From Okamejei kenojei (taxonomy: Eukaryota): DNA of 64,000 nucleotides. The stretch is taken from the NCBI GenBank assembly GCA_035221665.1, contig CM069132.1:107074001-107138000 (forward strand), in the 5' to 3' direction. The notes beneath the pieces are model-generated. The model was not told the DNA's origin. It did not search any database and was given only the letters and a program-made list of their open reading frames with translations. Positions 6,181 to 54,355 of this stretch are shown piece after piece (position 1 is the first letter of the stretch; each line of letters opens with the position of its first letter). The translations under genes were made by a program, and so were the position numbers.

Positions 6181-6690
6181 ATCTTATTATTTGGTCTAGG
6201 TAAAGATGATGAATATCCTGGAGGTACAAGTTTGACCATCTTGAACATGCTCATTGCTTAGCAAACGTCACTTGCCACTTAACAGCCCAGGGTTGAATGT
6301 TGTCCAGATCTTGTTACACACAGGGATGGTCAGCTACATTATCTGAGCAGCTACAGATAGAACTGAACACTGCAAGAATCTAAGGCACACCTTATGGTGA
6401 GGGAAGATGGAACATCTGAGGATTGTTTGGCTCGCGGTTCTTTTCCAAGGTTATTGTTTAACAATTTTGTGCTGGATATAACTTCAGCTACTGGAGCGAT
6501 TTCTCATTTTGTTTACAGTTTTACAAGGGATCAAAATTGTTGTCAAATGCTGCATTGTTTCCAACTTCACCTGTGGAATTTACCTCTGATTCTTCTGTCC
6601 ATATTTGAACCTAAAGCTATGAGTTCTGAAAACGAGTAGGAAGAAACTGCAAATGCTGATGAAGGGTCTTGACCCAAAACATCACCTATT

Positions 6691-7447
6691 GGGCCTGTCC
6701 CACTTAGGCGATTTTTCAGCGGACTGCCGGTGACTGTCAAGTTGCCGGCAGTCACCTGAAAAACCAGGAACTGGAACGGCGACTGTCAGAGTAGAACACA
6801 CACACACAAACACATCGCAAAGGCGGGGGCCAGGGCAAGGGGGGGGGGGGGGGGGGGGGGGGGCGCCATCTGAAATTCACACGATGCAAAGCCAAGGTGA
6901 TACAGACACACACCGTGATGAACAGGAAGGTTGGCGCTGTAATTAAGACGGCTAGCACAGTGTACGGTAAGTCCTTTAAAAGATGGAGGGAGGGGGGAGA
7001 AGGAGTGGAGACAACTTTTAAGAATCCAGACAACTTTTAATAAGCCAAAGATACACAGCTGTGAAGTTCGACGGACATTACCAGTCGGTTATCCTTGATT
7101 CTGAAAACTCCTGCTTATGTTTTTTTCCCCCAATGAGCCAATGAAAATGACCGGTCAGCAAAGGCGATTAAATAAAACTACCTACGACTACCTCGACTAC
7201 CTACAACTAATTGGCGACCCCACTACCACTGCATCTACGACTACAGGATTATCGATTATATCCATGGCGATCAATGTTGAAAAATTTGCGGCGACCATAC
7301 TGAGGCCGCGACTAGTTCCCAGAATGCGGGAACTCCTCGCGACCGTGAAGGAAACTCACCAGAGACCACCAGCGACCATGTGGCGACCATGTGGCAAGCG
7401 CAGAATCTCAAGCACTCGCCTAAAATTCACCTAAGTGGGACAGGTCC
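6691..7447. mobile_element. PIF/Harbinger-like non-autonomous MITE inserted in a PLE-LTR fragment
   Basis: TIRs gggcctgtcccacttagg / cctaagtgggacaggtcc; no transposase; flanks rejoin as a PLE-LTR piece (6640-6690 and 7448-7505). Confidence 0.75.
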
Positions 7448-7559
7448 ATATTTCTCGAGAGATGTTGCCTGACCTGCTGAGTTGCTCCAGCACTTTGTGT
7501 CTATCCTGGTTCTGGAATTGAATTGGCCTGGTGAAACGAAAAGTGAATGTTAGTGTGTA

Positions 7560-7683
7560 GGTAGACAAAAATGCTGGAGAAATAGCGGGTAAGGCAGCAT
7601 CTATGGAGCGAAGGAAATTTTCCTTTGCTCCAGCAATTTTGTCTACCTTCGATTTTCCAGCATCTGCAGTTCCTTCTTAAACG
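7560..7683. mobile_element. Short palindromic PLE-LTR-derived cassette (hammerhead core deleted)
   Basis: gtagacaaaaatgctggag ... ctccagcaattttgtctac inverted arms; gtgtgtaggt repeated on both flanks. Confidence 0.6.
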
Positions 7684-8954
7684 TTTGTGTGTAGGTTATT
7701 GGTGAGCAGGGACTGCTTGATAATGACACCATCCATAATTAGATTAGATTGGTTTATTGTCATATACACATGAAGTCAATGAAATTCCCTTTGCTTTATT
7801 GCTATGTTGTTGGTTGACAATTAACTGAGGCAGTAAAGACTGTACTGTTATTAGACGATGTACATTTTGTGGATAAGGTGTACTTTGACAATACTTTCCA
7901 TTTGCTAGGCAAATATTAGCATTGCAATTTTAATGTAACAATGTAGATGGAGGGATGGCAAGTTCTTGAGCCAATATCTTTATTCTTAGAATTTGTATAC
8001 TACCTTTTCAATCAGCCTTTGCAATATTCAACTGTTGTTCAACTGTTTACTGATATCAAGTGAAGTAACTTGGATGATAGGGACCTTGGAAGTAATATCT
8101 GAGCGATCATGCACTTGGCACTTCTAACAGAAGATGGTTGAAATGGTTCAACCTTTTTTTTTGCACTGATACATTAGGTTTTGCTGTTATTAAAGTTATG
8201 AATACTCATGAAATCTATGATTTGTGGTGTATTGCCCACCACTATTTCAGCTATTAAACTGGGGTTATGGTGAAAAGGCAGGAGAATGGGGTTAGGAGGG
8301 AGAGATAGATTAACCGTGATTGAATGGTGGAGTAGGCTTGAAGGGCCCATTTGGCCTAATTCTGCTCCTTTCACTTATGACCTTGTGATAAATATTGTGC
8401 AAATACCTGCCTCCACCATCTTCTCAGGCAGTACATTCCAGATTGCAACCATCACAACCCCCCCACCCCCAGATTATCCTCTGCTCTAAGGAAAGCAAAC
8501 CCAAACTCTACAGCCACTCTTCACAACTGAAATGGTCCAGTCCAGACAACATCCTGGTGAAAGAAATGACACAAAGTACTGGAGTGAATGTTTTGGTTCG
8601 GGACCCTTTGGCACCAGCATCTGCTTGTTCCTTTTATGCGTCATTTATCCATTTTCGCCAGAGATGCTGCCTGACCTGCTGAGTTACTCCAGTACTTTGT
8701 ATCTTTGTTTTTGTACACCAGTACCTGCAGTTCCTTGTGTCTCCGATATTCTGGTGGATCTCCACAGCATTTCTCTGTGGATTGCATCCTTCCTGTGAAG
8801 TGACAACTTAAAATATGAACATTACTCCAGTTGTCGCCTATTTAAGGTTTTATAAGATCATGTTTTTAAATTCTACATCCAGGCTAAAGATGGCAAGTAT
8901 CCTGCATGCCTTCTTTACCACGTTATTTTCCTGTGGGGTCATATTCAGGGATGG

Positions 8955-21397: not shown

Positions 21398-22061
21398 AGC
21401 CCAGTCCCACTTATCTGTCCTTGGCACGCTAATTACATGACCCCGTGGTTGCATTGAGGCGTGACGGTCCCGTGAAGGTCGTCTGGAGTGCATGATCTCA
21501 TTTGAAGATGGACACAAAGTTGGAGTAATTCAGTGGGACCGTCAGCATCTCTGGAGAGAAGCAATGGGTGACGTTTCGTGTCGAGACTCTTCTTCGGTCT
21601 GAAAGAAGGGTCTTGACCCAAAACGTCACCCATTGCTTCTCTCCAGAGATGCTGCCGGTCCCGCTGAGTTACTCCTGCATTTTGTGTCTACCTTCAATTT
21701 TCTTGGCCCCGCTCTGGGAGTAGAAGTGGGGGCGGATCCGGACCGCAACGGCCGTGGGCCCCAGGCCGAGTTTGGCGATTGTTTGCCTGCTTCTGCTGCT
21801 GTTGGAGGTGAGATGTTGCATCGCGCCAGGGTCTTGGGTCTGTCCCACTTTGGCCGTCAGTTACGCGACAGGCCGTTGGCGCGCGAAGATTTCGTTCGCT
21901 ACAAAAATTTCAGAGCCCTGCGCGATGTCGCGCACAACTACATACCCCTCCGCTCTTCTCAGTGGGACCAGCCCCGTGCGGCCATACGATGCCCGTGCGC
22001 CTCAACGTGACGACGAGGTCGCGTAATTTGCATGCCAAGGACACCTAAGTGGGGCAGGCCC
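21398..22061. mobile_element. PIF/Harbinger-like MITE containing an inserted palindromic PLE-LTR cassette
   Basis: Imperfect TIRs gcccagtcccacttatctgtccttggcacgctaattac / gtaatttgcatgccaaggacacctaagtggggcaggccc. Confidence 0.7.
21502..21697. mobile_element. Palindromic PLE-LTR cassette with two back-to-back degenerate hammerhead cores
   Basis: Near-perfect inverted arms (cagcatctctggagagaagcaatgggtgacgttt / aaacgtcacccattgcttctctccagagatgctg). Confidence 0.8.
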
Positions 22062-23638
22062 TTTAATCTTTGCAAATCCAAAAGTTCCACCTCTGTTTGA
22101 ACTCTAGCTATTCATCATTGTATTTTATGACAGATCTGTTTAAAATTCCAGAATGTGTGTATAGAGCTACAATTTTGCAGGATAGAGGAATACTTGTTTT
22201 AACTTGTACTCAAACATACTTCAGATTCATACTAGTACTTGATTTAGCTTCGTGGACAACTTCATATTCCCTTGACAAGAAGGTTTGCTGACTACATCCA
22301 AATATTTGCCTTCTATTTTTAATAAAAGTGTGGCTAATGGTATTTGGCTATACCCACCTCCACCAGCTTTCTGTATTCCTTTCTGTAGTTCTTGACGGCA
22401 ATAGTAAAATCAATCAGGTCTATGCTCTTCACTGATGCCCGCTATCACTTGAGTGTCAGCGATTGAAGATATGTGACTTGTAATACACTTCAGAGCCTTT
22501 CAACATGATCTTGCAAAGAATGAACTGTTTCCCATATCATGGAAGCCTCTGCTCAGCAAGACATTTATGATTTAAAAACTCCATTGCCTTCAGTACATCA
22601 GAATATCCTTTGGTTGTCTGAAATGGAGTGTTTTTAACATCAAGATCTTGAAAAATATAACTTGTGGTCTACTGGAAAGCAGTGGTCTGTACCTTTGTAG
22701 ACGCTTAGCATTTATCAATTACCACAGTTCGCAGCTCAAAGTATTGGTGAACTATCAAAATTCTACCTCGATAAATTCCTCCAAATTCAAGCCGACTTAC
22801 CCAGTGTTGGGGCCCTGATTACATTCACTCAGCTCTAATGGGCAGACCACACGTTTCTTGTCCGACACTGGAATTCTAAAGCAGGCACTCGATTCTGAGC
22901 CGAGTCATCAGAAGAAATTTCCATTTAGAATAAATAATTCAAATCCTTCTTAGATAATGCTAACATCATCACTGATTTGTGGAATCACTGGTCCATGACC
23001 ACACAAGCTGGAGTAGTACTTGGGGTGACACTGCAAACCTTGTCCATTTCTTTGGAGATCACAGAGCCCCAGTGCAAATGGTCGAAGGAGTATATCATCT
23101 CCCAAATAACCCAGCCACCATCAAGGACCTCAGGCTTCTACATGGAAATGTCTTCGATTGACTTCACCCACCTAAAAAAAAACAGGGAGCTGGACTGGAA
23201 GCGTCATCCTCAACCATGAGGGGCCACCTATCAAGAGTAAGGGAGGAAAACACGGCTGTCTGTGGAACAGATTTTGGTATTGAAGAATAATAGTTTTGGC
23301 TTCCCTGGATTTAATTTGAAAAACTACTCAACTGCGCTGGCTTTTGGAAAAGTGATTAGATGGTTCAGAGGCCGAAGGATTCATGTTTTTTTCTCAAGAT
23401 ACACGTGTAATGCAATGAGTTTGAAGAAAGGTCTCAACCCAAAATGTCATCCATGTCCTCTCTCCAGAGATGCTGCCAGTCCCATTGAGTAACTCCAGAA
23501 TTTTGTGTCTATCCTCTGTGTAACGTGATGAGTTTTGTTATTCTTATAAGTACTCCATAAGTAGGTCATTTGTAGAAACACTTTTGAGATTGCCTATAGT
23601 AACTGTCTGCTGGACAGCATAAATAAGATATGATTTAT

Positions 23639-23957
23639 GACTTTGGAAAGAGAGCAGGAAATGGATTCTGAATGAGCAGGAAATTAGCAGAAATGACCAA
23701 AACATAAGAAATAAGAGCAGAGGATAGCCAAGCATCCCCTAGCATCTGCTCTGGCATTCATGGTGGATCTGATCTTGGCCTCTGGTTCACTTGCCTACAT
23801 AGGTCCTGAAATTCTTAACTTTCCAGTAAACCAAAATCTGCCCTCCTTGGCCTTGAATACAGTCAATGACTGGCTATGTGGGGCTCCAGGATTGATAATT
23901 TGAAATGTGCACATCACACTGCAATTTCATCTCAACATCCAAAATTTTGTCGACATT
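23639..23957 (+). repeat. Source copy of a 319-bp local duplication (second copy 24187-24505)
   Basis: Near-identical direct repeat gactttggaaagagagcag...gtcgacatt. Confidence 0.95.
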
Positions 23958-24101
23958 TAGAAAATGAATTTCACAGTGTTACACCAAGCCCAGTAAAGGC
24001 ATGAACATCAATAATGCTGCAAAGAGAATACATGATACACAAGTGATTATAAAGGAGTAAGAAGTTGGATTTGGAGACAAAATGAATGAGGATATTTATT
24101 A

Positions 24102-24532
24102 TGTTGTTAAAGAAGGAACTGCAGATGCTGGAGAATCGAGGGTACACAAAAGGCTGGAGAAACTCAGCGGGTGCAGCAGCATCTAAGACTTTGGAAAGAG
24201 AGCAGAAAATGGATTCTGAATGAGCAGGAAATTAGCAGAAATGACCAAAATATAAGAAATAAGAGCAGAGGATAGCCAAGCATCCCCTAGCATCTGCTCT
24301 GGCATTCATGGTGGATCTCATCTTGGCCTCTGGTTCACTTGCCTACATTGGTCCTGAAATTCTTAACTTTCCAGTAAACCAAAATCTGCCCTCCTTGGCC
24401 TTGAATACAGTCAATGACTGGCTATGTGGGGCTCCAGGATTGATAATTTGAAATGTGCACATCACACTGCAATTTCATCTCAACATCCAAAATTTTGTCG
24501 ACATTATGAGTTTCTCCAGCCTTTTGTGTACC
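24102..24532 (-). mobile_element. PLE insertion carrying duplicated flanking DNA
   Basis: 14-bp TSD gaggatatttatta (24088-24101 and 24533-24546); PLE 3' end 24108-24185; duplicated segment 24187-24505; inverted PLE piece 24507-24532. Confidence 0.85.
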
Positions 24533-24577
24533 GAGGATATTTATTAGATTTGAGCAATTGGATGACTGAGAGTTTGT

Positions 24578-24768
24578 AAGAAAGAACTGCAGATGTTGGT
24601 TTAAATTGAAGGTAGACACAAAATGCTGGAGTCACTCAGCGGGATAGGCAGCTTGTCTGGAGAGAAGGGTCTCGACTCGTCTGAAGAAGTGTCACGACCC
24701 AAAACATCGCCCATTCCTTCTCTCCAGAGATGCTGCCTGTCCCGCTGAGATACTCCAACATTTTGTGA
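24578..24768. mobile_element. Palindromic PLE-LTR cassette
   Basis: Inverted arms around ctgaagaagtgtcacgacccaaaac; tgactgagagtttgt repeated on both flanks. Confidence 0.7.
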
Positions 24769-24859
24769 CTGAGAGTTTGTTGATTTGGCAGAAACTGTAA
24801 TAATGGTACCAACGACTTGGTGTAGGATTAGCAGCAGATTTCTCTACACGTTTGATTAG

Positions 24860-25164
24860 ACGTCTACCCTCGATTACCTACGACTAACATGCCGACCTAC
24901 TACGACCTGCTACGACTAAACCTACGAGTAAAAAAAGTATCGTTTTTTTCCATGGTGACCTTTTTTTGCTTGCGGGTATTTTTTTAACATATTTTCAAAA
25001 ACGCCCGCGACCTAGCTGAGGCCTCGAGTACACGGAGACCACTCTCGAGCATGAAGGAGAGTTACGAAGACCTCCTACGACCTCGTGTCGACCATACTGC
25101 GAGTATGAGTCGAGGGCAAACTCGCCAGAACTCGCAGATTAGGTCGCCCAAGTGGCACATGCCC
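24860..25164. mobile_element. Truncated PIF/Harbinger-like MITE (right half)
   Basis: Homologous to about 54575-54855 (ctacgac repeats, gacctagctgaggcc); degenerate TIR aagtggcacatgccc. Confidence 0.7.
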
Positions 25165-26166
25165 TTTACGAAGGAGAGGTGACCATTAAGAAGTACACTG
25201 TTGTAAATCAGTCTAGAATTGCGCAGACAAACATCCAAGTTTAAACAGTACATGGACTAATCAGCTACAGGTATGGCATGGTTGCTAATAGGCGAATACA
25301 AATTATTTCTCAATCTCTGGCTATTAATAGTGGGGGAGAACCATATTCAGACTTGAAATTACTATATTAGTTCAATCTCTTTCTTTGGCAGTGAAACATA
25401 CCCACTAGCATTCGCAAAACAAGCCAAATGGAATGCTTAAGAATTCCAGAAATTCCACTGTTAGTCATGCAGATGAGATTTTTCTTCTCTCCAGCAGCTC
25501 TGTACCAGGTTGTCACTGTTTCTAAGATGGTATTAATTAGGTAGTGGGAGGGGAAGAGTGAGTGAGCTACAGCAGCTCTAAACTTGTTTGTAGTTTACCC
25601 ATTCATTACTTAATTCTAGGGCTGCTTTTGTAGTTAGGTTTGTGCATTGCTAAAACCAGTGCACAAGATTCTGATTGGGAAGGTGTAGAAAGCGTCGTGA
25701 AAAGTTAATTATTTTTAATTTTGAAAATAGGGAGGTGGTGGGAGTATTCAGTATTCTCATTCCTTTATATCTCTACCCTGTTCTGCAAAAGAAGTATCAT
25801 ACAACAAAAACACAATGTCATTAATGATGGTCAACCTGCATATTGCCTTGTACTTTAAAATCCAGGTGCTTAACTTTTAACCCTTTTTTATTGCCAAACA
25901 AACAATTTCACTGTACCTTGGTACACATGACAATAATAAACCCAAATCAGGGTCTTGGGTTTAATCCTGTTTTATATGGCAAGTCTAAACCTGTGCTTAG
26001 ATTTGGTTCCGTGACATGTTCAAAACCAACTCTTCTGAACCTATATTTTCCTGCTAAATATTTTGGGTAATTAGGTCTTCACTATTTAGAAAGTCTCAAG
26101 AACACCAACTTCAATTATTTCATGTCCAATTGTGGCAAGGTCATTGGGGTGTAAGTTAGCATTGCT

Positions 26167-29566: not shown

Positions 29567-29753
29567 TTTAATAGTGATTAAATAAAACTTTTCTCTTTCC
29601 AAGTCGTTTATTTAATTGGGTAATTAAGTGATCTGGTACATCTTGATGTGGCATGGATTAACAATTGGGTTTGTTGAATGAGCAACCCCTGCAGTGTTGC
29701 ATTGTGTGGATTTGACAGTGAGCCAGAATGGCAGGCAGCATGTATTTCCAGCA

Positions 29754-32000
29754 GGGTACACAGAAGGCTGGGGAAACTCAGCGGGGGCAGCAGCTTTAAA
29801 TTTTTTTTTAGGTGAGGACCACTGCCCTTGTTGCGAGTGGGGGAATGGGGAGAGAGGGCAGTGTTGCGGGGTATGGAGGAGACCCTGGTGCGAGCCTCAT
29901 CTATAGTGGGGGAGGGGAATCCCCATTCTCTGAAGAATGAGGACATTTGTGATGACCTGGTGTGGAACACCTCATCCTGGGAGCAGATGCGGCGTAGACG
30001 GAGGAATTGGGAATAGGGGATGGAGTCCTTACAGGAAGCAGGGTGGGAGAAAGAGTAGTCCAGGTAGCTGTGGGAGTCAGTTGGTTTGTAGTGGATGTTG
30101 GTCAGGAGTGTATCACCTGCAATAGAGATGGTGAGGTCAAGGAATGGTAGGGAAATGTCGGAAATGGTCCAAGTGTATTTGAGTGCCGGATGGAAGTTGG
30201 TGGTGAAATGGATGAAATCAGTCAGTTTGTGTGTGGGTGCAGGAGGTGACACCAAAGCAGTCGTCGATGTAACAGAGGTAGAGGTCGGGATGGGGCCCTG
30301 GTACGCCGAGAACAAGGATTGTTACGACGTACCCGACAAAGAGGCAAGCGTAGCTGGGGCCCATGCGTGTTGCCCATAGCTACGCTTTGTGTTTGGAGGA
30401 AATGGGAGGAGTCAAAAGAGAAGTTATTGAGGGTAAGGACCAACTCCGCTAGGCGGAGGAGGGTGTCAGTGGACGGGTATGGGTTGCTCCTCTGGTCGAG
30501 GAAGAACCGGAGGGCTTTGAGACCATCCTGGTGGGGGATGGAGGTGTAGAGTGACTGGACGTCCATGGTAAAGATGAGAGGATGGGGGCCTGGAGAATGG
30601 AATGCGCGGAGCCGACGGAGAGTTTCTGAGGTTGAACGTAGGTGGGGAGGGATTTAACAAAGGGGGAATAGGATGGAGTTCGGTGGGGCACGAACAGGCA
30701 GAGACAATGGGTCTGCCAGGGCAGTCGGGTTTGTGGATTTTGGGGAGAAGGTAAAATCGGGCCGTGCGGAGCTGGGAAACGATGAGGTTGGAGGCTCGGG
30801 GGGGGTAGGGAACTGGAGCTGATGAAGTCGGTTATGGTGCTCGAGATGGTGGCCTGGTGTTCGTCAGTGGGGTCATGGTCCAGGGGTAAGTAGGTGTCCG
30901 AGAGTAGGTGCGCGGCCTCCGCTTTGTAGAGATCGACGCGCCAGACTACCACGGCACCTCTCTTGTCGGCGGGTTTGATAACCCAGTCTGGGTTGTTACG
31001 GAGTGAGTCGATGGCAGTACGTTCGGGGCTGGAGAGATTGGAGTGAGACAGGGGAGTGGAGAAGTCGAGGCGGTTGATGTCCCGACGGCAGTTCTGGATA
31101 AATAGTTCTAGAGCCGGAAGGCTACGAGGGGGGGGTCCAAGTGGAGGGGGTACGTTGGAGACAGGAAAAGGGATCATCAGTGGGGGGTGGGACTTCTTCC
31201 AAAGAACGCTGTGAGGCGGAGGCGACGGTAGAAGAGCTCCAAGTCGTGGTGGGCGCGGAACTCATTGAGGTGGGGACGGAGGGGGACAAAGGTAAGACCT
31301 CTGCTGAGGACAGACCTTTCAGTGTCGGAGAGGGGGAGGTCCGGGGGGATGGTGAACACGCTGTAAGGATGGTGGTTGTGGCCGGAGGAAGGCAGGTGAG
31401 TGTACTGATGATGGAGTGTTGTGTGGTGGAAGGGTGGAGGGTGGTCAGGGGGCGAGGGGGTATGAGGGCTGTGGTGTGTGTGGGGAAGAGCAGGGGTTAC
31501 ATGGTAGGGGGGGGATGGGGAAGACCCAGTGGAATAGCCACTAAGGTTACTGGGGCTGGGGAGCCAGGCACTAGGACCCAGTGCCGTTAAAAACAGAGTG
31601 GTGGGAGGAGTTAGCAACGTGGAGGCTTCAGGCCCACTGCAGAGTCCAGTCTGCAGGTGAGGCGACGGCTGTGGGCTGCTGGAGGGCGGTGGAGTGTCGT
31701 GGGTCGGCGGACCCAAAGGTAGGAGTCCCGTGGGTCGGCGGACCCAAAGGTAGGAGTCCGCGGGTAGTGGAGTCGGGGTCGGCGGGCGATGCGTTGGAGG
31801 TCCCGGTGGGCGGGTGGTCGGTCCGACCTGTGAGGTGGCGAGATGAGTGGGGTGCGGTGGGGCGGCCATGTTCGGGGAGCCCCGGTCCGGCGGCGATGCA
31901 TGGTGAGGCGGGTGCGGCTGTGGTCTTCGGCGGGCCCAGTACAACGCCGATGCTGGATGGGCCCGGTGCGGCGGTTGTGACCTTCGGCGGGCCCACATGC
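29754..32000 (-). mobile_element. Penelope-like retroelement with frameshifted RT, 3' region deleted
   Basis: LSDTERSVLSRGLTFVP, NLSSPERTAIDSLRNNPDWVIKPADKRGAVVVW, MDVQSLYTSIPHQDG, YKPTDSHSYLDYSFSHP, IPYSQFLRLRRICS; 13-bp TSD tgtatttccagca (29741-29753 and 32001-32013). Confidence 0.92.
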
Positions 32001-33680: not shown

Positions 33681-34553
33681 CGTTGTTCTAATGGCTTTGA
33701 TTTGAACTATGATCATTTTCAATAATTTGGATATCTATAAACATAATTGCCCAGACAAATCTATCCACCAGGAAATTTATTATTTGCTGACTACCAACTC
33801 ATTCTGCCATTTACTAAGGCAAGCTGAGACATTTGGTTGTATTGTATCTGTTTTGTGATGCTCCAATGAAAATTAATTTGTCCCAAGCAGAACAGAAATC
33901 AGCCCTGGCATTTATTGTAGCAAATCAATCTTATGCTGATCGGATGTTTTCGTTGTCAGCTGTGCATGTAATTGCATCTTTCTGTACCTTCTTCAGTATA
34001 GGCCAGGAGAATCTGGGTCACATTTTTCCAAAGCACATCTCTTGTTACACACAGTCAGCTCCACCAGGTATTAATGGTGCTGCGTTTCTATAGATACACA
34101 GTTTAAAGCCGCCTCGCTGAACAGATTTGGCTCACAACACATTCACTGACTGGAACTTCTTTCTTTCTGCCTCTCAGCCCTGACTTTGGTTAAAAGGTAT
34201 TTGGACTGCACCATGGATAGGAAAGGTTTAGAGGGTGTAGGGCCAAACATGGATTGGTGGGACTAGCATAGATGGGGCATCTGGTCAGCATGAGCATGTT
34301 GGGCTGAAAATCCACTTACACTACAAGTATAACTCTACAAGTGATTCCAAGTCATCAACTCGATTCTTTCTGACATTTGACCCTCCACTAAAACTCGGCC
34401 TATTCACCATGAAGTTCAACACTTCTCCTACTGCTTGGTTCTTCACTGTTCCCATGACCAAAGATTATATTTTTTCCTTCTAGTTCTTTGTGGTGGCGTA
34501 ATACATTTTTTTAAAAATCCTTTTGTAAAGCTAATTGGTAACTGTCAATATCT

Positions 34554-34707
34554 TTAGCTTTGGGTACCACTGAAATAGTAGGCAACAATCCTACAACCAA
34601 AATGGTTGGCATATTGCTCTGCAAACCAATTAGCTTTGGGTACCACTGAAATAGTAGGCAACAATCCTACAACCAAAATGGTTGGCATATTGCTCTGCAA
34701 ACCAATT
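34554..34707. repeat. Perfect 2-copy tandem repeat, 76-bp unit
   Basis: ttagctttgggtaccactgaaatagtagg...gcaaaccaa occurs at 34554 and 34630. Confidence 0.95.
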
Positions 34708-36420: not shown

Positions 36421-36486
36421 TCCTTGATTATGCCCCTGGCCTTGCCGAGACAGCATGAGGTATAAATGGAATCAATAGAAGGGAGG

Positions 36487-37050
36487 GTACACAATAAGCT
36501 GGAGAAACTCAGCGGGTGCAGCAGCAGCTAAGGAGCGAAGGAGATAGGCGACGTTTCGGGTCGAGACCCTTCTTCAGACTGGTCAGGGATCAGGGAAACG
36601 AAAGATATAGACGGTGATGTGGAGAGATAAGGAACAATGAATAAAAGATATGCAAAAAAGTATCGATGATAAAGGGAACAAGCCATTGTAAGCTGTTTGT
36701 GGTGTGAAAATGAGAAGCTGGTGCGACTGGTGTGGGGGAGGGAGATAGAGATAGAGGGAATGCCAGGGCCTGAGGGCTGAGGGAGAGGTGGGAAGGGGAG
36801 GAGACAGCAAGGGTTAACAGAATTGAGAAAATTCAATGTTCAAGCCCAAAGGATGCAGACTCCCCAAGCGGAATATGAGGTGCTGTTTCTCCAGCTTGCG
36901 GTGTTGCTCACTCTGGCCGTGGAGGAGGCCCAGGACCGAGAGGTCGGATGCGGAATGGGAGGGGGAGTTGAAGTGCTGAGCCACCGGGAGGTCGGGTTGG
37001 TTTTTGCGGACCGAGCGGAGGTGTTCGGCGAAACGATCGCCAAGCGATCG
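36487..37050 (-). mobile_element. Penelope 3' fragment (GIY-YIG C-terminal part plus LTR) inserted in a Rex1-like LINE
   Basis: Minus strand reads RFAEHLRSVRKNQPDLPVAQHFNSPSH...LIFRLGSLHPLGLNIEF; 15-bp TSD tcaatagaagggagg (36472-36486 and 37051-37065). Confidence 0.88.
36550..36577 (-). ncRNA. Minimal type I hammerhead ribozyme motif in PLE LTR
   Basis: CUGAAGA-a-gggucucgaccc-GAAA-C-GUC: intact core, 5-bp stem II, loopless palindromic stem III; stem I only about 2 bp, so activity is uncertain. Confidence 0.65.
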
Positions 37051-38385: not shown

Positions 38386-38782
38386 CTCTGGGCTTGAACA
38401 TTGAATGTTCTCAATTCTGTTAACCCTTGCTGTCTCCTCCCCTTCCCACCTCTCCCTCAGCCCTCGGGCCCTGGCATTCCCTCTCTCTCTATCTCCCTCC
38501 CCCACCCTAGTCGCACTAGCTTCTCATTTTCACACCACAAACAGCTTACAATGGCTTGTTCCCTTTACCATTGATACTTTTTTGCATATCTTTCATTCAT
38601 TGTTCTTTATCTCTCCACATCACCGTCTATATCTCTCGTTTCCCTGATCCATGACCAGTCTGAAGAAGGGTCTCGACCCGAAACGTCGCCTATCTCCTTC
38701 GCTCCTTAGATGCTGCTGCACCCGCTGAGTTTCTCCAGTCTTTTGTGTACCCTCGATTCTCCAGCATCTGCAGTTCCTTCTT
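38386..38782 (+). mobile_element. Penelope 3' end / LTR, inverted relative to 36487-36840
   Basis: Near-identical reverse complement of the 36.5-kb copy; TSD-like taaccagggagcat / taaccagagagcat. Confidence 0.88.
38660..38687 (+). ncRNA. Minimal type I hammerhead ribozyme motif in PLE LTR, sense to the CTNNAL1 pre-mRNA
   Basis: CTGAAGAagggtctcgacccGAAACGTC with intact core and GUC triplet; weak stem I. Confidence 0.65.
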
Positions 38783-39987
38783 TAACCAGAGAGCATATTG
38801 CCTTGTGTAAATGTTCCCTCTGTCCTCACCCTGCAATAAAATTACTTAAAACAATTGTACCCATATGCAAATTAGATCGGAAGCCATAAACATAATGGTG
38901 GATTGAAAAGATTCTAACACTGCTGATCAGATCTTTTAGGGTAAAACATGCCAGAAGACCAGAATTGTCTAAAAAAAATCTCAAAGATGTCCATTATACG
39001 CATGTATTAAATTCTCCAGCTTGAGCTACCTTTTTTTTTAAAAAAAGGACCAATCTTCTTGAAACTTAATTTAAAATACCCGTTAAAAAACTGTAATTAC
39101 AAATAAATGAAAGCTAGATAATAAGCAATTACAAATTAATGTTTTCTTTTTAAAGTCTCAGTTGGCACTTTTTTCACAGTCAACATATTAACTTTGTTCT
39201 GTAAGCAAAAGGGCTTCGGGCTTAAGTGTTAAAATAGTCGATCACACTGTTTTCCATTATTAGATTACTAACAAATGTTAAAGTGTTTGGCAGAATAACA
39301 TTTGTACTGAATTGCTATAAAAAGTTAATTAAAATTAGGATAATCTTCAATCCCTTCTTTATGTGATGCCTGAAAATGATTGCTAAATTGTATTTACATT
39401 ATCTTATTATTGGTGTTATTTTACTCTTATTAGGAGGAGTTGCATTTGTTTTCTATCTTGTAGTATTTGTTAATGATACATTCTTTCATGTTTGAGTTGG
39501 CCTTTATTCAGATCTGCTTCTGAAAGGGCACCAGTCTTCTAATTGGATGTTTCAAAATGCAGAGATGAGGTGAAGAGACAGTGGAGAGGGCATTTCTGAA
39601 ATGTGTATGTTCTGTTTGCGCTGTTTCTGCATTCTATGGCCTTTCGAAGATGTCAGTTCAATTTTTGCCTTGTCAGACTCTTGAGACAATATTTCAACCC
39701 AGAAAAGGCTCGATTCAATTTGTTTTAGTGTTACCATTTGTTTAACTGTTTTCTGTGGCAGAGTAAAGCTTTTTGATATCCTCCACCTTTCTTCACCCCA
39801 GGCATGTTTTGTTGATCTTCAGTTAATGGCAGGTGAAATTGGCAGCAACAGAGGCTGAGGATCGTACAAAGTATAAAGTTATTCAGATATAAACATTAAT
39901 TGGTTATATAGCAAGAAAGTAATCAAATATGATTCACTGTATGATGGTCAGATGTTCATCTTGGTATTTGTGAAACAAGACATGAGG

Positions 39988-40230
39988 GTCTGAAGAAGGG
40001 TCTCGATCCAAAATGTCACATTACTTTTCTCCACAGTTGCTGCCTGACCCACTGGGTTACTCCAGCTTTTTGTGTCTATCTTTGGTTAACTGGATAGTAG
40101 AGCATTGCAGACACCAGGAACTGTAGATACTGGTTTACAAAAAAGTCACTGTGCTGGAGTAACTCGGCACGTCAAACAGCATCTTTGGGGAACATGGATA
40201 GGCAACGTTTCTTGTCGGGACCCAGACTCA
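39988..40230. mobile_element. Two adjacent inverted PLE-LTR fragments
   Basis: Plus copy ctgaagaagggtctcgatccaaaatgtc..., minus copy gaactgtagatactgg...ggcaacgtttcttgtcgggaccc. Confidence 0.65.
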
Positions 40231-40659
40231 GTGGAGTATTGCAACTGAACCAAAGTTCTCTAATCTTTTTCCAGCCAGTAGATAACAAGGACCAGTGCTA
40301 ATAATCTGAAAACCAAAAAAATGCTAAAAAATACTCTGTATTTCAGCTGTAGTTTGTCTATCGTAACTAGCAAATAGAGATAAGTAATGTCTAAAAACTA
40401 ATCAAACCAAGTTGTGTTGGAGTATTTGAGAGGAAGGATGGCACCTCAGCATGTACACATAAAATAATGTATATACAAAGTTGGATATGCAGTGATTATT
40501 TTTATCGTTAATTTGCAACCTGATCATTGTTTAAAAAAGAATCCTCTTGTAAACAATACATTGAGATATGGTGAGAACTAATGCAAATGAGAACTGGAGA
40601 ATTGATGGGATCTAATGCTGCATGAAGTTTCTAACTCTATATCCTTTATGCCAAGACTT

Positions 40660-46915: not shown

Positions 46916-46916
46916 C

Positions 46917-47200
46917 CTCCTCAGGATCTCAATGTAAACCACCGCCGGCCCTGTTTTCTGCACCACATCGGCGATGAAGTTGCATTTGAGGCGGGGGCTG
47001 TCGGGGGGATGGGCCGAGCGGCCTGGAGCTAGGGAAGGGAGAGGCCGAGGCTGCGGCCTAGTCCTTGGCTCGGGTCCCGCTCCTCTCCCTTCCAGCGGGC
47101 CCGGACCAGCAGCGTCGCCGCCCTCAAACCCAGCCCCAGCCTCAGCGCCCAGGCCCCGGACCCCGCACCGGCACCAACCCCAGCCCAGGGCCCGGAGGCA
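46917..47200 (-). pseudogene. HTRA2: Captured fragment of HtrA2/Omi serine protease exon 1
   Basis: [31 protein letters not shown] versus recalled HTRA2 [28 protein letters not shown]; upstream frameshifted hydrophobic stretch [18 protein letters not shown]; phase-2 donor AG|GTGCGG at 46917/46916; no further exons seen. Confidence 0.8.
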
Positions 47201-49363: not shown

Positions 49364-51329
49364 AGTATTTGTGTGACATGCTTTTTCATTGCTTTCCGTG
49401 ATTAGTATTCAGAAACTGCACTTTACCTTTATTTGCCTTTGCAACCTATGGCAATTGTAGTATTCCATTATGAATCCATTTGAAATCGCAAAATGATCAT
49501 TGAGTTGACCTTTTTGATTTTTGATTCATGTGATAATCTGTTTATGGTTCATAAGTATGCTAATTATACATTGAAATACTATAATTCTGCATGTAATGTA
49601 GTATTTTACTTCGGAGTCACGTGAGTGACTACGTGAAGAAGCCCCGCCAGGAGCATGCGCGTCATTACGTCGACGCATGTCGCACCGGCAGGCTGGAGAG
49701 CTCAGCTCCACCAGCGGTAAGCAGTTACCCGCAGGTAAGTCACTGTTAAACCTTCCTGCGAGTGTTTTTAAACTCTGTAAGTCTGGTTCGCAGAGCCAGC
49801 TGGAGTTGCTCATATATATTGTTAAATTTTAAAACTCTGTAAGTCTGGCTCGCAGAGCCAGCTAGAGTTGGAAAAATATATTTTTAAACTGTGGTAATGG
49901 AGTGGAACGTGCGGGGACCACGGTTACCGCTTTTAGATCGGGTCGGGAGATAAGGGCTGCTCTAAAGCTGGCTCCCGCTATTACCGCTATTTAGATCGGG
50001 TTTGGAGATAACGGCTGCGCTAAATGCCGGCTCCAATACCCGCTACCGTTATACTAGGCAGGTAAAATGAAATGAAATTAAATAAAATGAAATACTAACT
50101 TTATTTCCCAACAGCCTCCATCAATTTCCAGTGCTTCAAGGCACTTAGAAATACCATGCTAAAGTACTCTTAGGCTCATTTGCCATGAATCTGATGATAT
50201 GGAAGATTCCCTCCTTTTTAATTTAAAGGTATGGGGATGGCACGACCAATGGGGGGAAAATACTCCAAATTTAAAGAGCCATGGGGGAGGGGGGGGAAAT
50301 TTCAATTAGGGTCAAATGCCCTAGGATTCCCAAACAGCCTCTCACAGAGGTCCATGCAGCAAAGAAGAAAACATTGTTATACATAGCAGTGGGAATCATC
50401 ATCCCCAGCACCTTGTTAGGGCTGAATGAGGCCTCCCTAGAGCATAACTCGGGAGAAGCAGGGCAGGAGGAATCTGACCCTGTAGCTGGTGTCACTGCTT
50501 ATGTACACGAGCCATGCTCCAGGTGTCCCGGATGTAGCGTTAAAAACTTCGCTAAACCCGGTAGGGACTGGTGAGGCTATCGAGGAAACTCTAGCCGCCA
50601 AATGTAAATTACATAGTTTCTCACCAGTTCCAGAATACGTTCATGAAGACTGCCATAAGTTATAAAACATCTGTAAACTGTGCTTCACTCAAAATGTTCA
50701 TCGTGAACTCGGCAAAGGCACAAATGAGTGCAACGATGCGGAGACAAAAAGTGAGGTTTCAACGCATCCCCAAGTTGTTGCTATTCAACAAGATATGCTG
50801 GCCTGTTCTGCAACACCTACGTTGAACCCAAAATTGCAGCTCTATGTAGGTCCACCAATATCCAAGCCAGATTATTTATTTGTGGTGGGCCTGCTCCAAC
50901 AAGCCAAGGACCTGGAGGAACATGCCAAAACAATCCGTCTCAGCAAGGCATACGTTCCTTCTGCCAGGATGTCGTCTCGCAGGTCGTTTCAGCGCGAAAG
51001 GTGACGGATCCAGGGGCAGGGCCACGCAGAGTGGGGGCAGTGGGAAGAAGGTATTCCTCACCTGTGTACCCCAGCTACAACCCCAATATGGGCAGAAGTA
51101 GTAAAGGATGACTGTAGAGGTACAGGTGATTCATTTTGTCCAGGATAAGTTCTGGGACCTCCGGTTGGGGGTAGGTTACAATTGGGTATGATGAACGGTG
51201 CTGCATAACATCTCATCAGTTTATACTACACACTGTCTCAAGCTCGAATACAGTTTATGTCAACAATTGATCCGCCTGTACACAATATGCCTAATACAGT
51301 ATTGGGGGTTTCTGCACAAACTCAGCAGG

Positions 51330-52030
51330 TAAAAGAATAAATTACGGGTTGTCCCAAAAAAGGGGAATTGAGAGGACAATAAACCATCCTCAACAATTGT
51401 GTCCAATATTTTCCCCAGACAGAGATAAAATGGGGGATGTAGAGGTATTCTGGACCTAAATCAGTTAAATTCCTATGTTTAGTACATGCATTTTAAATAG
51501 ACACCTTCAATACTGCGAAACGGCTGTTAGCACAAGGCTGTTATATAGCAACTATAAGTCTGAAAGATGCATATTATTCAGTACCAATTCATCATCAGTA
51601 TCGGAGATACTTGAAATTTAGTTGGATGGGACAGTTGCGGCAATTTAAGGCATTACCAATGAGTTAACCTCAGTTCTAGGCTAGTCAAGAAATTGTGTGA
51701 ACCAGTGCTAGAGCTACATTGGGCCCACAATTGGTAAAGGCTTATCTAGATGATATTTTAATCATAAGCAACACTCAAGAGACAGCTGAGGAATCGGTTT
51801 CATCAACCAAATACATATTAGAAAGGTTAGAGTTCCTGGTCCATCCAACTAAATCCAAGTTAGAGCCATCCTAAAAAATTGTTTATTTGGGATATGTCAG
51901 TGACTTGCCTACAGCCAAGGTTGTGGAGATCAGAGAGGTCTGTACCAGTCTTACTGGAAAACAATATCCCTCCATCCGGGAAGTAGCTACTGTTATTAGT
52001 AAATTGGTGGCAGTTTTCCCTGTAGTGCAG
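51330..52030 (+). pseudogene. DIRS reverse transcriptase remnant
   Basis: RGILDLNQLN, LKDAYYSVPIH and AYLDDILII motifs, disrupted by stops and frameshifts. Confidence 0.85.
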
Positions 52031-52723
52031 TTGGAGTGCAAGCTAGAGGTTGTGGAAAGTGCTGGGAGAGAGTCTGTTCGCAGGTAGCGTGGGGCGCGCA
52101 GTGATGCGGTTCCATCTCAGCGTTCGAGTCGGGAGCTAAGTGCGGTAATGCCGGCACTGATACCAATGGATGTTGCCCTGGTGATTGAACAGCCTCCAGC
52201 TGCTCCAGTGTCGCAGGGCACTGAGGCCACGGCAACAAGTAAATAAATAAATAAAATTATAAAATTATTAAAATAAATAAATAGATTTAATTTAAAAAAA
52301 CGAAAGTCTGTCAGACCAGTTTATCTGACGGGTCTGAGGAAGAAGAAGACTCTCCTCCAGACCGGAAAAGAATGTAGGGGAGACTGGAACAAATGGAGAA
52401 AATGCTCCAACCTTTAATCAGTCAAGGGTCCAAAGACCCAGAGATTTCCCAGGCAGCCTCCGAAGGAGTTCCATACACTGAGTATGGTGCCTATCAAGAA
52501 TGGGAATCTGACACTCCAGTGCCTTGTTTAGGTCTGGAAGAGGTCTCCCTAGAGCAAGACTCGGGAGGACCAGGGCAGGAGGGGACTGACCCTGAAGCTG
52601 GTGTCCCTACTTATGTGTATACACCAGAGCACAAGAGCCACGCTCCGGGTATTCCTGATGTAGCAATAAGTTTTGCTATACCGGAAGTGAGGCTATGGAC
52701 GAGAACCTGGCGGCCAACATTAA

Positions 52724-53344
52724 TTGGTTTCTCACCAGCTCCAAGAAACTGTTATGACTGAAACAGCTGAAATATATAAAACAACCGTCAATTGTGCCTC
52801 GCTCAGGGTGCCAACAGTAAAATCTGCAATTTGGGCACCCATGAGTGCAACGATGCGAGGGCAGGAAATGCGTTTCCAGCATGTCCTCAAGCTGATATCA
52901 GCAGGCATCACTGTATTTGGGAAACACATACAAGGGTCGACAATGTCCAAAACTCAAAAGGACATGCTTGCGTTGGTCTGCAATGCCTATTTCGAACTTA
53001 ATTGTATGAGGAAAATTGCCATTCGGCCAACATTGCACCCAAAATTTGCAGGACTGTGTAGGGCAAGCAACATTCAAGCACCGGATTACTTGTTCGGCGA
53101 CGACCTCATCAAGCAAATTAGGGACATTGACGATGAGGCAAAGACAATTGGGCTTATGAAGCCATTCATCCCTGCTCCCAGGATGTCATCTAAACAGTTA
53201 GGTTCGATGCGCAGGGGGTCAGATCACGGGGCAGGGCCAAACAGAGGAAGGCCGATGGGGCAAAAATATTACCCACCAGTGCAGCCCAACAACAACCCAA
53301 TATTGGGAGGTAGGCCAAATCCTCGGGACCGCAAGATGGTCTAA
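52724..53344 (+). pseudogene. DIRS gag-like ORF remnant (second copy)
   Basis: NCASLRVPTVKSAIW...RKIAIRPTLHPKFAGLC...YLFGDDLIKQIRDI; paralogous to about 50420-51100. Confidence 0.7.
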
Positions 53345-54355
53345 GGAATCGACGTTTCTACGTTTTATGATAAACTTGTTCTTACAGGACCAAGGTTTGG
53401 ACATGCTGTGTTGGGTCCTGTACAGGGTTTAAAGCATACCCTGTTGACCAAAGGTTAAGTGTAGTTAAGCACCTGGGTCAATATATCAAGGTAAATTAGA
53501 GTCTCAGAGGCTCTTAGACAGCAATGCTCATCAGTCACCAAAAAAAACAAAAAAACTTCATAAAACGTGTCAGTATAAACTATTTCTAGATGGTAAAACA
53601 GGTTTTGGATTCTGCTGGAGTAGACACTCATGTATTTAAATCTTACTCCACCAGGGCGGCATCAACATCCGCAGCAAGGCCGCAGGATGGTCTAAGGAAT
53701 CAACTTTCTAAAATTATGTTAAACCTGTCCTGACAGTGCCAGGGTTTGGGCATGCTGTTTTGATTTCTGTTTGATTTGATTTGCTTTGTCATTATAACTT
53801 TCATTTGTGATTTCCCCTGGGATAGAGGGGTTATTACTGTATTCTTATTTAAAAAATGATTATTGGATAATTCGAAGCAATGTTCAATACATTATTTATT
53901 CACTACTGTGTCAACTGAAGCAGTGTGTCGTATGGAGTGCATCTACGGCATGAAATCAAAGAGTTTTGAAATCTTCACGTAGTCACTCACGTGACTCCGA
54001 AGTAAAATAGTAAGATTAAACGAGAACTTACCAGTTCGAAGTTTGATCCTTATTTTATGAGGAGTTACGATGAGGGATTACCTGCCCTCCGCTCCCGGCC
54101 CTCATAATCGAAAGGATCATCTGGTAGTTCTAGTCTTCTCAAAGCCTTACTATTTTACCTCGGCTATCGGTTTCTGTGTTTTCACACCGCTGCTTTGAAG
54201 TATGGCGCGCATGCGCCTGGCAGGGCTTCTTCACGTAATCCCTCATAAAATAAGGATCAAACTTCGAACTGGTAAGTTCTCATTTAATCTTACTATTTTA
54301 TACTGCTGTGCTCGCTCTTGGTTTGACAAAACTTCAGCCTCAGTTCAGAGGTTAA

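Follow-up and report, generated by a model that had tools for sequence, protein, structure and literature searches.

How does the insertion of a Penelope element (PLE) come to enclose a copy of the chromosome that lies beside it? The question is raised by the segment 23639..24546 of the window, i.e., of the whole 64-kb stretch of DNA that was analysed, in which the following features succeed one another:

23639..23957, plus strand: source of the patch, identical at 315/319 positions to 24187-24505; single-copy host DNA within the window
23958..24087, plus strand: spacer of 130 bp from the source to the target site, uncopied
24088..24101, plus strand: left copy of the TSD, apparently present as one copy in organism C (X8 record 23)
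24102..24187, minus strand (sense on the minus strand): long PLE arm, the pseudo-LTR (pLTR) 3' end, 86 nt including the tail
24187..24508, plus strand: patch, a direct-orientation copy of the upstream source, 320-322 bp
24507..24532, plus strand (sense on the plus strand): short PLE arm, tail-less and inverted, 26 nt
24533..24546, plus strand: right copy of the TSD, crossed gap-free by X6 record 17

The two 14-bp TSD copies (GAGGATATTTATTA) that the original prediction had placed at 24088-24101 and 24533-24546 agree at 14/14 positions and are the only 2 occurrences of this sequence in the window on either strand; the computed chance of such a match is ~1e-8 for one given pair of places. The pieces between them were also correctly recognised, since the near-perfect 319-bp copy (24187-24505 against 23639-23957) is identical at 315 of 319 positions, gap-free and with 4 substitutions, and the 26-bp inverted PLE piece at 24507-24532 matches 24141-24166 in reverse complement at 26/26 positions. 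The PLE 3' end is present too, but its limits are 24102/24106-24187 and not 24108-24185. Its tail occupies 35-39 nt (24102/24106-24140), and compared with the sister copy 38705-38786 the long arm is identical at 81/82 positions, 24102-24105 having no match in the sister. Among 124 self-matches in the 64 kb, source and patch form the sole direct pair less than 2 kb apart with at least 95% identity over more than 100 bp; the self-comparison found no further match of the source within the window, and six-frame translation, searched for a coding role of the source, found no long ORF. A tandem duplication with the PLE in its middle was rejected because the 130-bp spacer is not duplicated. The patched structure within the TSDs is real and is a single example. 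Elsewhere in the window, a perfect tandem duplication of ~77 bp occupies 34553-34707.

The locus could be followed in other organisms by comparing contigs only, over 23958-25300, from four runs, X1 and X5 (organism A), X6 (organism B) and X8 (organism C), out of 20 with part of 22300-25600 (24 runs listed). Organism A differs from the window flank at 5/175 and 3/175 bases; both of its samples (X1, X5) have one contig with the spacer, the TSD and the first 22-23 PLE bases, and X5 record 9, a 97-nt contig, runs across the junction of long arm and patch with 24 letters on the PLE side. At these two junctions the PLE side thus amounts to 22-24 letters, which is below the 31-letter rule. Organism B has a 289-nt gap-free piece (X6 record 17, 24312-24600, 10 letters different) that joins the patch, the short arm, the right TSD and the flank. 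Patch junctions therefore occur wherever the insertion is seen, the left one in organism A and the right one in organism B, and a contig across the whole insert is absent from the matches listed for the four runs (organisms A-C). Contig holes, i.e., X1 and X5 at 24555, X6 (with almost no cover) across 24003-24092 and all runs at 24813-24857, were not used as evidence.

In organism C, contig arithmetic indicates an empty site with one TSD. Bases 45-175 of the 241-nt contig X8 record 23 correspond to 23958-24087, and the 66 bases at its end fit 24533-24598; the depth at 24555, a position 23 letters away from where a piece ends, is the same (65.8). An alternative fit to 24512-24577, equal in arithmetic, was rejected because the left piece stops exactly at the start of the TSD and because, besides, other contigs reach 20-23 nt into the PLE before breaking. 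The source segment is also represented in organism C by one long contig, to which no PLE is joined. The single TSD that the original prediction expected at an orthologous locus is thus found in organism C, but by arithmetic, and contigs of organisms A, B and C together support one TSD-bounded insertion with an inferred empty site. Among the matches listed (4 runs, 3 organisms) there is neither the duplication without PLE arms, the observation named beforehand as speaking against a PLE origin, nor the arms without the patch.

Organism A also defines the limits of the patch. Its source continues with 'atg' and 43 further bases before the spacer (X1 record 1, X5 record 8; both samples). Because this source runs on through 'atg', base 24506 was templated, TG 24507-24508 is common to source and short arm (the organism A source contigs align to 24508), and the patch measures 320-322 bp; the copy stands, its length of 319 bp does not. 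At the left junction, G 24187 is common to the long arm and the patch, where PLE family copies continue GAGCGAAGG. The perfect microhomology is therefore 1 nt on the left, and 209/1001 flank positions do equally well or better. An overlap of 5 of 7 with a terminal G is reached by 11/1001 flank positions, this measure having been picked post hoc, and 7/1001 offer a 4-nt overlap. On the right it is 2 nt, with a TG frequency of 0.08.

Compared with organism A and its 'atg' and 43 bases, the window source has lost 46 bp where the duplicated segment ends. This deletion at 23957-23958 begins with the last 3 nt of that segment and could be a trace left by conversion between source and patch. Over the stretch compared, the copy types differ at 5/118 positions in organism A and 5/127 in organism B (phase unknown), compared with 4/319 in the window (Fisher p = 0.05; p = 0.23 on the matching 134 bp alone). 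At 24357 and 24370, the letters of both window copies are absent from the organism B patch, from the organism C single copy and from one organism A contig, a pattern in the letters that points to gene conversion between the window copies or to polishing cross-talk. Source and patch of the window were probably homogenised later, and for this reason their 98.7% identity does not date the event; dating by it was rejected, as it would make the event look too young: organism B already has the patch and differs at 10/289 positions.

That the repeat belongs to a PLE, as predicted, is supported by a related copy with P0001, by homology to P0057 and by a hammerhead core. The sister copy ending at 38786 is a plain 5'-truncated insert with a TSD of 13/14, and the related copy 36477-37050 shares 94.7% identity with this sister over 380 nt. 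The related copy has the same terminal repeat and, immediately 5' of it, P0001, a 78-residue frame that is 61% identical to the C-terminus of P0057, in which Pfam recognises RVT_1 below the cut-off and GIY-YIG above it, with CxxC; P0057 also matches an RT relic at 29815-30566. Endonuclease-bearing PLEs are characterised by an RT with a C-terminal GIY-YIG and two cysteines between GIY and YIG (PMC8557442), an architecture connected with our insert through the related copy 36477-37050 and not found in the insert itself. What the insert itself displays is a tail at one end only (35-39 nt), an inverted 5'-truncated copy (the short arm) and the 14-bp TSD. P0001 alone had no Pfam match; the PLE fragments of the window yielded 0/7 and, in a second set, 1/4 (sub-threshold RVT_1 only), a PDB search with the RT fragment gave no match, and ESM Atlas provided leads only (GIY-YIG on 15% of one cluster; PF26215). 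The best named match is a little-skate protein at 86%, so that the host is probably a skate or ray. By its likeness, the family may be of Poseidon type.

The hammerhead core has the pattern CTGANGA-stem-GAAA, and a search with it found a minimal hammerhead-like core at 5 places in the window, including the sister copies at 38660 and 36577. The arms of the insert stop short of this core, which is seen in the related window copies. A minimal form of the ribozyme has been described (PMC4209133). Rfam returned 0 matches at gathering score in the 64 kb and around the sister pLTR chance matches only, with no hammerhead; the folding of the sister 3' end gave z = -0.4. Other relics in the window comprise a decayed PLE ORF at 29753-31500 (minus strand), which retains an N-terminal part and the RT, misses the endonuclease part and adjoins a 44-nt tail-less pLTR fragment, and 67-bp inverted repeats (95.5%) around 164 bp at 54003-54300, beside decayed ORF pairs (50405-53770), which, as a guess, might mark one end of a tyrosine-recombinase retroelement or else represent a small DNA transposon.

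The inverted arrangement of the arms had been attributed to the capture of host DNA. This does not hold, as neighbouring inserts without a patch have the same form:

7549-7696: tailed arm and tail-less inverted arm joined directly, no patch; TSD 13/14
24563-24780: tailed and tail-less inverted arms, no patch; TSD 15/15
21493-21710: third inverted insert, no patch; no clear TSD

The first two, 7549-7696 and 24563-24780, have the same pair of arms together with a TSD, and PLEs are described as having an inverted copy and a 30-40-bp tail, often at one end only (PMC8557442). The long arm of 7549-7696 has an internal deletion between two CTCCA repeats, and 24563-24780, which lies 16 bp to the right of the patched insert, is older, belongs to another PLE subfamily and is apparently present in organisms B and C too. 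At 39988-40237, two old PLE ends stand tail to tail, ~40 bp apart, the reverse of the usual head-to-head order. When 26 PLE 3' ends of the window were scored by eye (leaving out 6656-6700, a fragment cut before its end), 16 were tail-less, i.e., they stop just after the TTTTGTGT block, 9 were tailed and 1 was intermediate; the 16 include the short arm of the insert. Three closely related copies have tail-less ends no more than 2-3 nt from the point where this arm stops, which is the second 3' terminus of the PLE family.

On balance, we consider it likely that the locus records one PLE retrotransposition with two-ended priming on PLE RNA, early-stopped cDNAs and a bridge templated by local DNA. 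The GIY-YIG endonuclease would have cut both strands 14 nt apart, as the TSD suggests. The left 3' end would then have primed at the tailed start site to give a cDNA of 82-86 nt, and the right 3' end at the tail-less start site to give one of 26 nt. Both cDNAs would have halted before the palindromic hammerhead region, a possible meeting place of such arms, and would thus have had no complementarity to each other. One cDNA end may then have paired over 1-2 nt with host DNA on the left side of the cut, supported ~320 nt of synthesis, been released and been joined to the other cDNA end; the product of this step lies in the sequence, the route is conjectural. Since resection of the left end exposes the plus strand, a course in which the short arm primed on the resected left-end plus strand and ran leftwards would be slightly favoured, and direct-repeat templated inserts are likewise explained by synthesis that one end primes on its resected partner (PMC7165422). 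The mirror route, with the long arm on the minus strand, would require a sister chromatid or invasion of the duplex; it is only slightly less likely. The bridge could have been made by the PLE RT or by a host repair polymerase. In the window lineage, the copies would later have become partly homogenised and the source shortened by 46 bp at the duplicated edge.

Of the template switch in the original prediction, local templating of the patch is retained, but the return to PLE RNA is not: a switch back would give a second arm in the same orientation as the first, yet the 26-nt arm is inverted, and to be so it must either have been primed separately at the opposite target end or have arisen by snap-back on the cDNA. 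The minus strand proposed as template is not favoured either, as the geometry of resection slightly prefers the plus strand. Nor is transduction a fitting label, because the copied DNA comes from the target site and no donor locus is involved; in 3' transduction terms, the cargo lies on the 5' (head-to-head) side of both arms. The PLE-arm pair without a patch in two neighbours counts for two-ended priming. Against it count the slight microhomologies at the junctions, the length of ~320 nt, far above that of polymerase-theta tracts, and also the fact that the two arms have no private variant, identical letters being predicted by second priming and snap-back alike. As to the timing of the patch, there is no patch-free filled allele among the matches listed (4 runs, 3 organisms); one organism empty and two filled leave room for a short-lived intermediate allele.

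Other histories can produce the same arrangement. A single top-strand cDNA, begun on PLE RNA, could have moved to the minus strand at 23639 and grown there by 320 nt; a snap-back through TG/CA pairing onto the PLE portion of the same cDNA would have added 26 nt in reverse before ligation to the right end. Such a relay would explain why the arms are identical (26/26) and why patch and short arm overlap by 2 nt, and snap-back synthesis on cDNA or nearby target DNA is known for R2 (PMC11371274). We nevertheless regard it as unlikely, since the stop could fall anywhere in ~64 nt, yet the arm ends in the ~10-nt tail-less window (rough chance 0.15), and since neighbouring inserts carry the same arm pair without a patch. 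Slightly less probable again is a history in two steps, where a palindromic PLE insert came first and its hairpin centre broke later, to be repaired from the flank independently of the PLE machinery. Palindromes are break-prone, patch-free inverted inserts are common in the window (7549-7696, 21493-21710, 24563-24780), and the outer ends of the patched insert are ordinary. However, the four runs list no match with a patch-free filled allele, older palindromic neighbours persist without a patch, and with organism C apparently empty and organisms A and B showing patch junctions, both steps would have to fall on one branch.

The template might also have been RNA, if the PLE RT had left its own RNA and continued for 320 nt on a nascent host transcript of the minus strand at this locus. 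The patch has the orientation expected if the top strand had copied a minus-strand RNA, there is an HTRA2-like first exon 22 kb away (46916-47145, minus strand), so that the site could be downstream in its transcript, and capture of intron-containing host sequence by PLEs has been described (PMC3846280). We hold this to be improbable: the HTRA2-like stretch is interrupted by an in-frame stop and a frameshift, neither tblastn with 14 homologues nor a search with short HtrA motifs revealed an exon after the first in the window, and a DNA template leads to a local origin without extra assumptions. An assembly or polishing artefact is very improbable. Polishing cross-talk could account for part of the high identity of the copies, and the contigs compared are not from the window's individual, but each junction recurs in contigs from independent runs of other organisms (TSD-long arm in X1 and X5, long arm-patch in X5, patch-short arm-TSD-flank over 289 nt in X6), and the copies differ by 4 substitutions.

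Comparison with known systems sets the two-ended reading in context. Templated insertions of L1 were reported in 22 tumour cases, typically <250 bp and with the template within 15 bp of the site (bioRxiv 10.1101/2024.08.27.596794), and in 3 cases in a cell model (PMC11702581). As in our locus, host DNA from near the integration site is copied into the TSD-bounded insertion, so that a host segment is duplicated. The L1 cases are somatic, whereas the PLE insert is germline, shared by several organisms, and holds its patch between two inverted arms; moreover, its patch measures 320-322 bp and was copied from DNA whose nearer edge is 130 bp, ancestrally 173 bp, away from the TSD, both larger than the L1 values, which are typical values and not limits. 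In R2, joining is preceded by further synthesis from the cDNA 3' end, with cDNA as the more frequent template and nearby target DNA as the less frequent one (PMC11371274), but priming there is one-ended, at a fixed rDNA site, in a system engineered in human cells. Inserts made by polymerase theta are direct-repeat copies of the flank at a break with short or no microhomology, and to that extent the orientation and the 1-2-nt overlaps of our patch agree with them; they typically measure 3-30 bp and come from within ~30 bp of the break (PMC7165422), whereas our patch is ~10x longer than such tracts and farther off. Insertion of the Dualen LINE in Chlamydomonas is coupled to a local duplication of hundreds of bases (PMC9977147), which resembles a very long TSD flanking the element, while the PLE insert has its 14-bp TSD outside and the copy inside, with 130 bp skipped.

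Within the PLEs, Arkhipova et al. described host DNA between pLTRs with a TSD and an empty allele in Adineta vaga Penelope and read it as mobilisation in trans (PMC3846280). Non-PLE cargo within PLE repeats and a TSD, an inverted pLTR and a tail on one side are features shared with our insert. In Adineta, direct pLTRs enclose the cargo, a gene or some unrelated sequence that was moved to a new place, whereas our insert took its cargo from the target site and holds it where two truncated arms join head-to-head; with inverted arms and a source 130 bp away, mobilisation in trans does not describe it. Frangieh et al. showed that the purified Poseidon-Ac PLE protein cuts and extends both target strands, using two start sites with a 30-40-nt tail between them and needing no homology to the target (PMC11167929). 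The two arms of our insert begin at the two corresponding start sites; cDNA joining and a host-DNA bridge are absent from the accessible part of that description. No PLE with inverted arms enclosing a copy of the target flank was reported in the literature searched, older PLE reviews being largely outside its reach. What would be new here is the locally sourced patch in a PLE, templated insertion itself being known from L1 and R2.

The formation of inverted PLE ends and the closure of the insertion are described as unresolved (PMC8557442; PMC11167929). The patched insert retains both start sites, the TSD, a deduced empty site and a traceable bridge, and is in this sense a natural record of the joining step. 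It is one non-coding event, and no second PLE with a local patch was seen in the ~20 pLTR clusters of the 64-kb window; it would become weightier only if recurrent. We also entertain, as a doubtful generalisation, that two cDNA ends, each primed on its own, normally coexist in an open intermediate of PLE integration and that, when these ends miss each other, the gap is closed by the PLE enzyme itself, which copies several hundred bases of the neighbouring chromosome. If this were true, a high PLE load such as the ~20 pLTR pieces per 64 kb seen here would lead to recurrent local duplications, exon-sized ones included, and the position and orientation of patches over many cases would reveal the PLE joining step.
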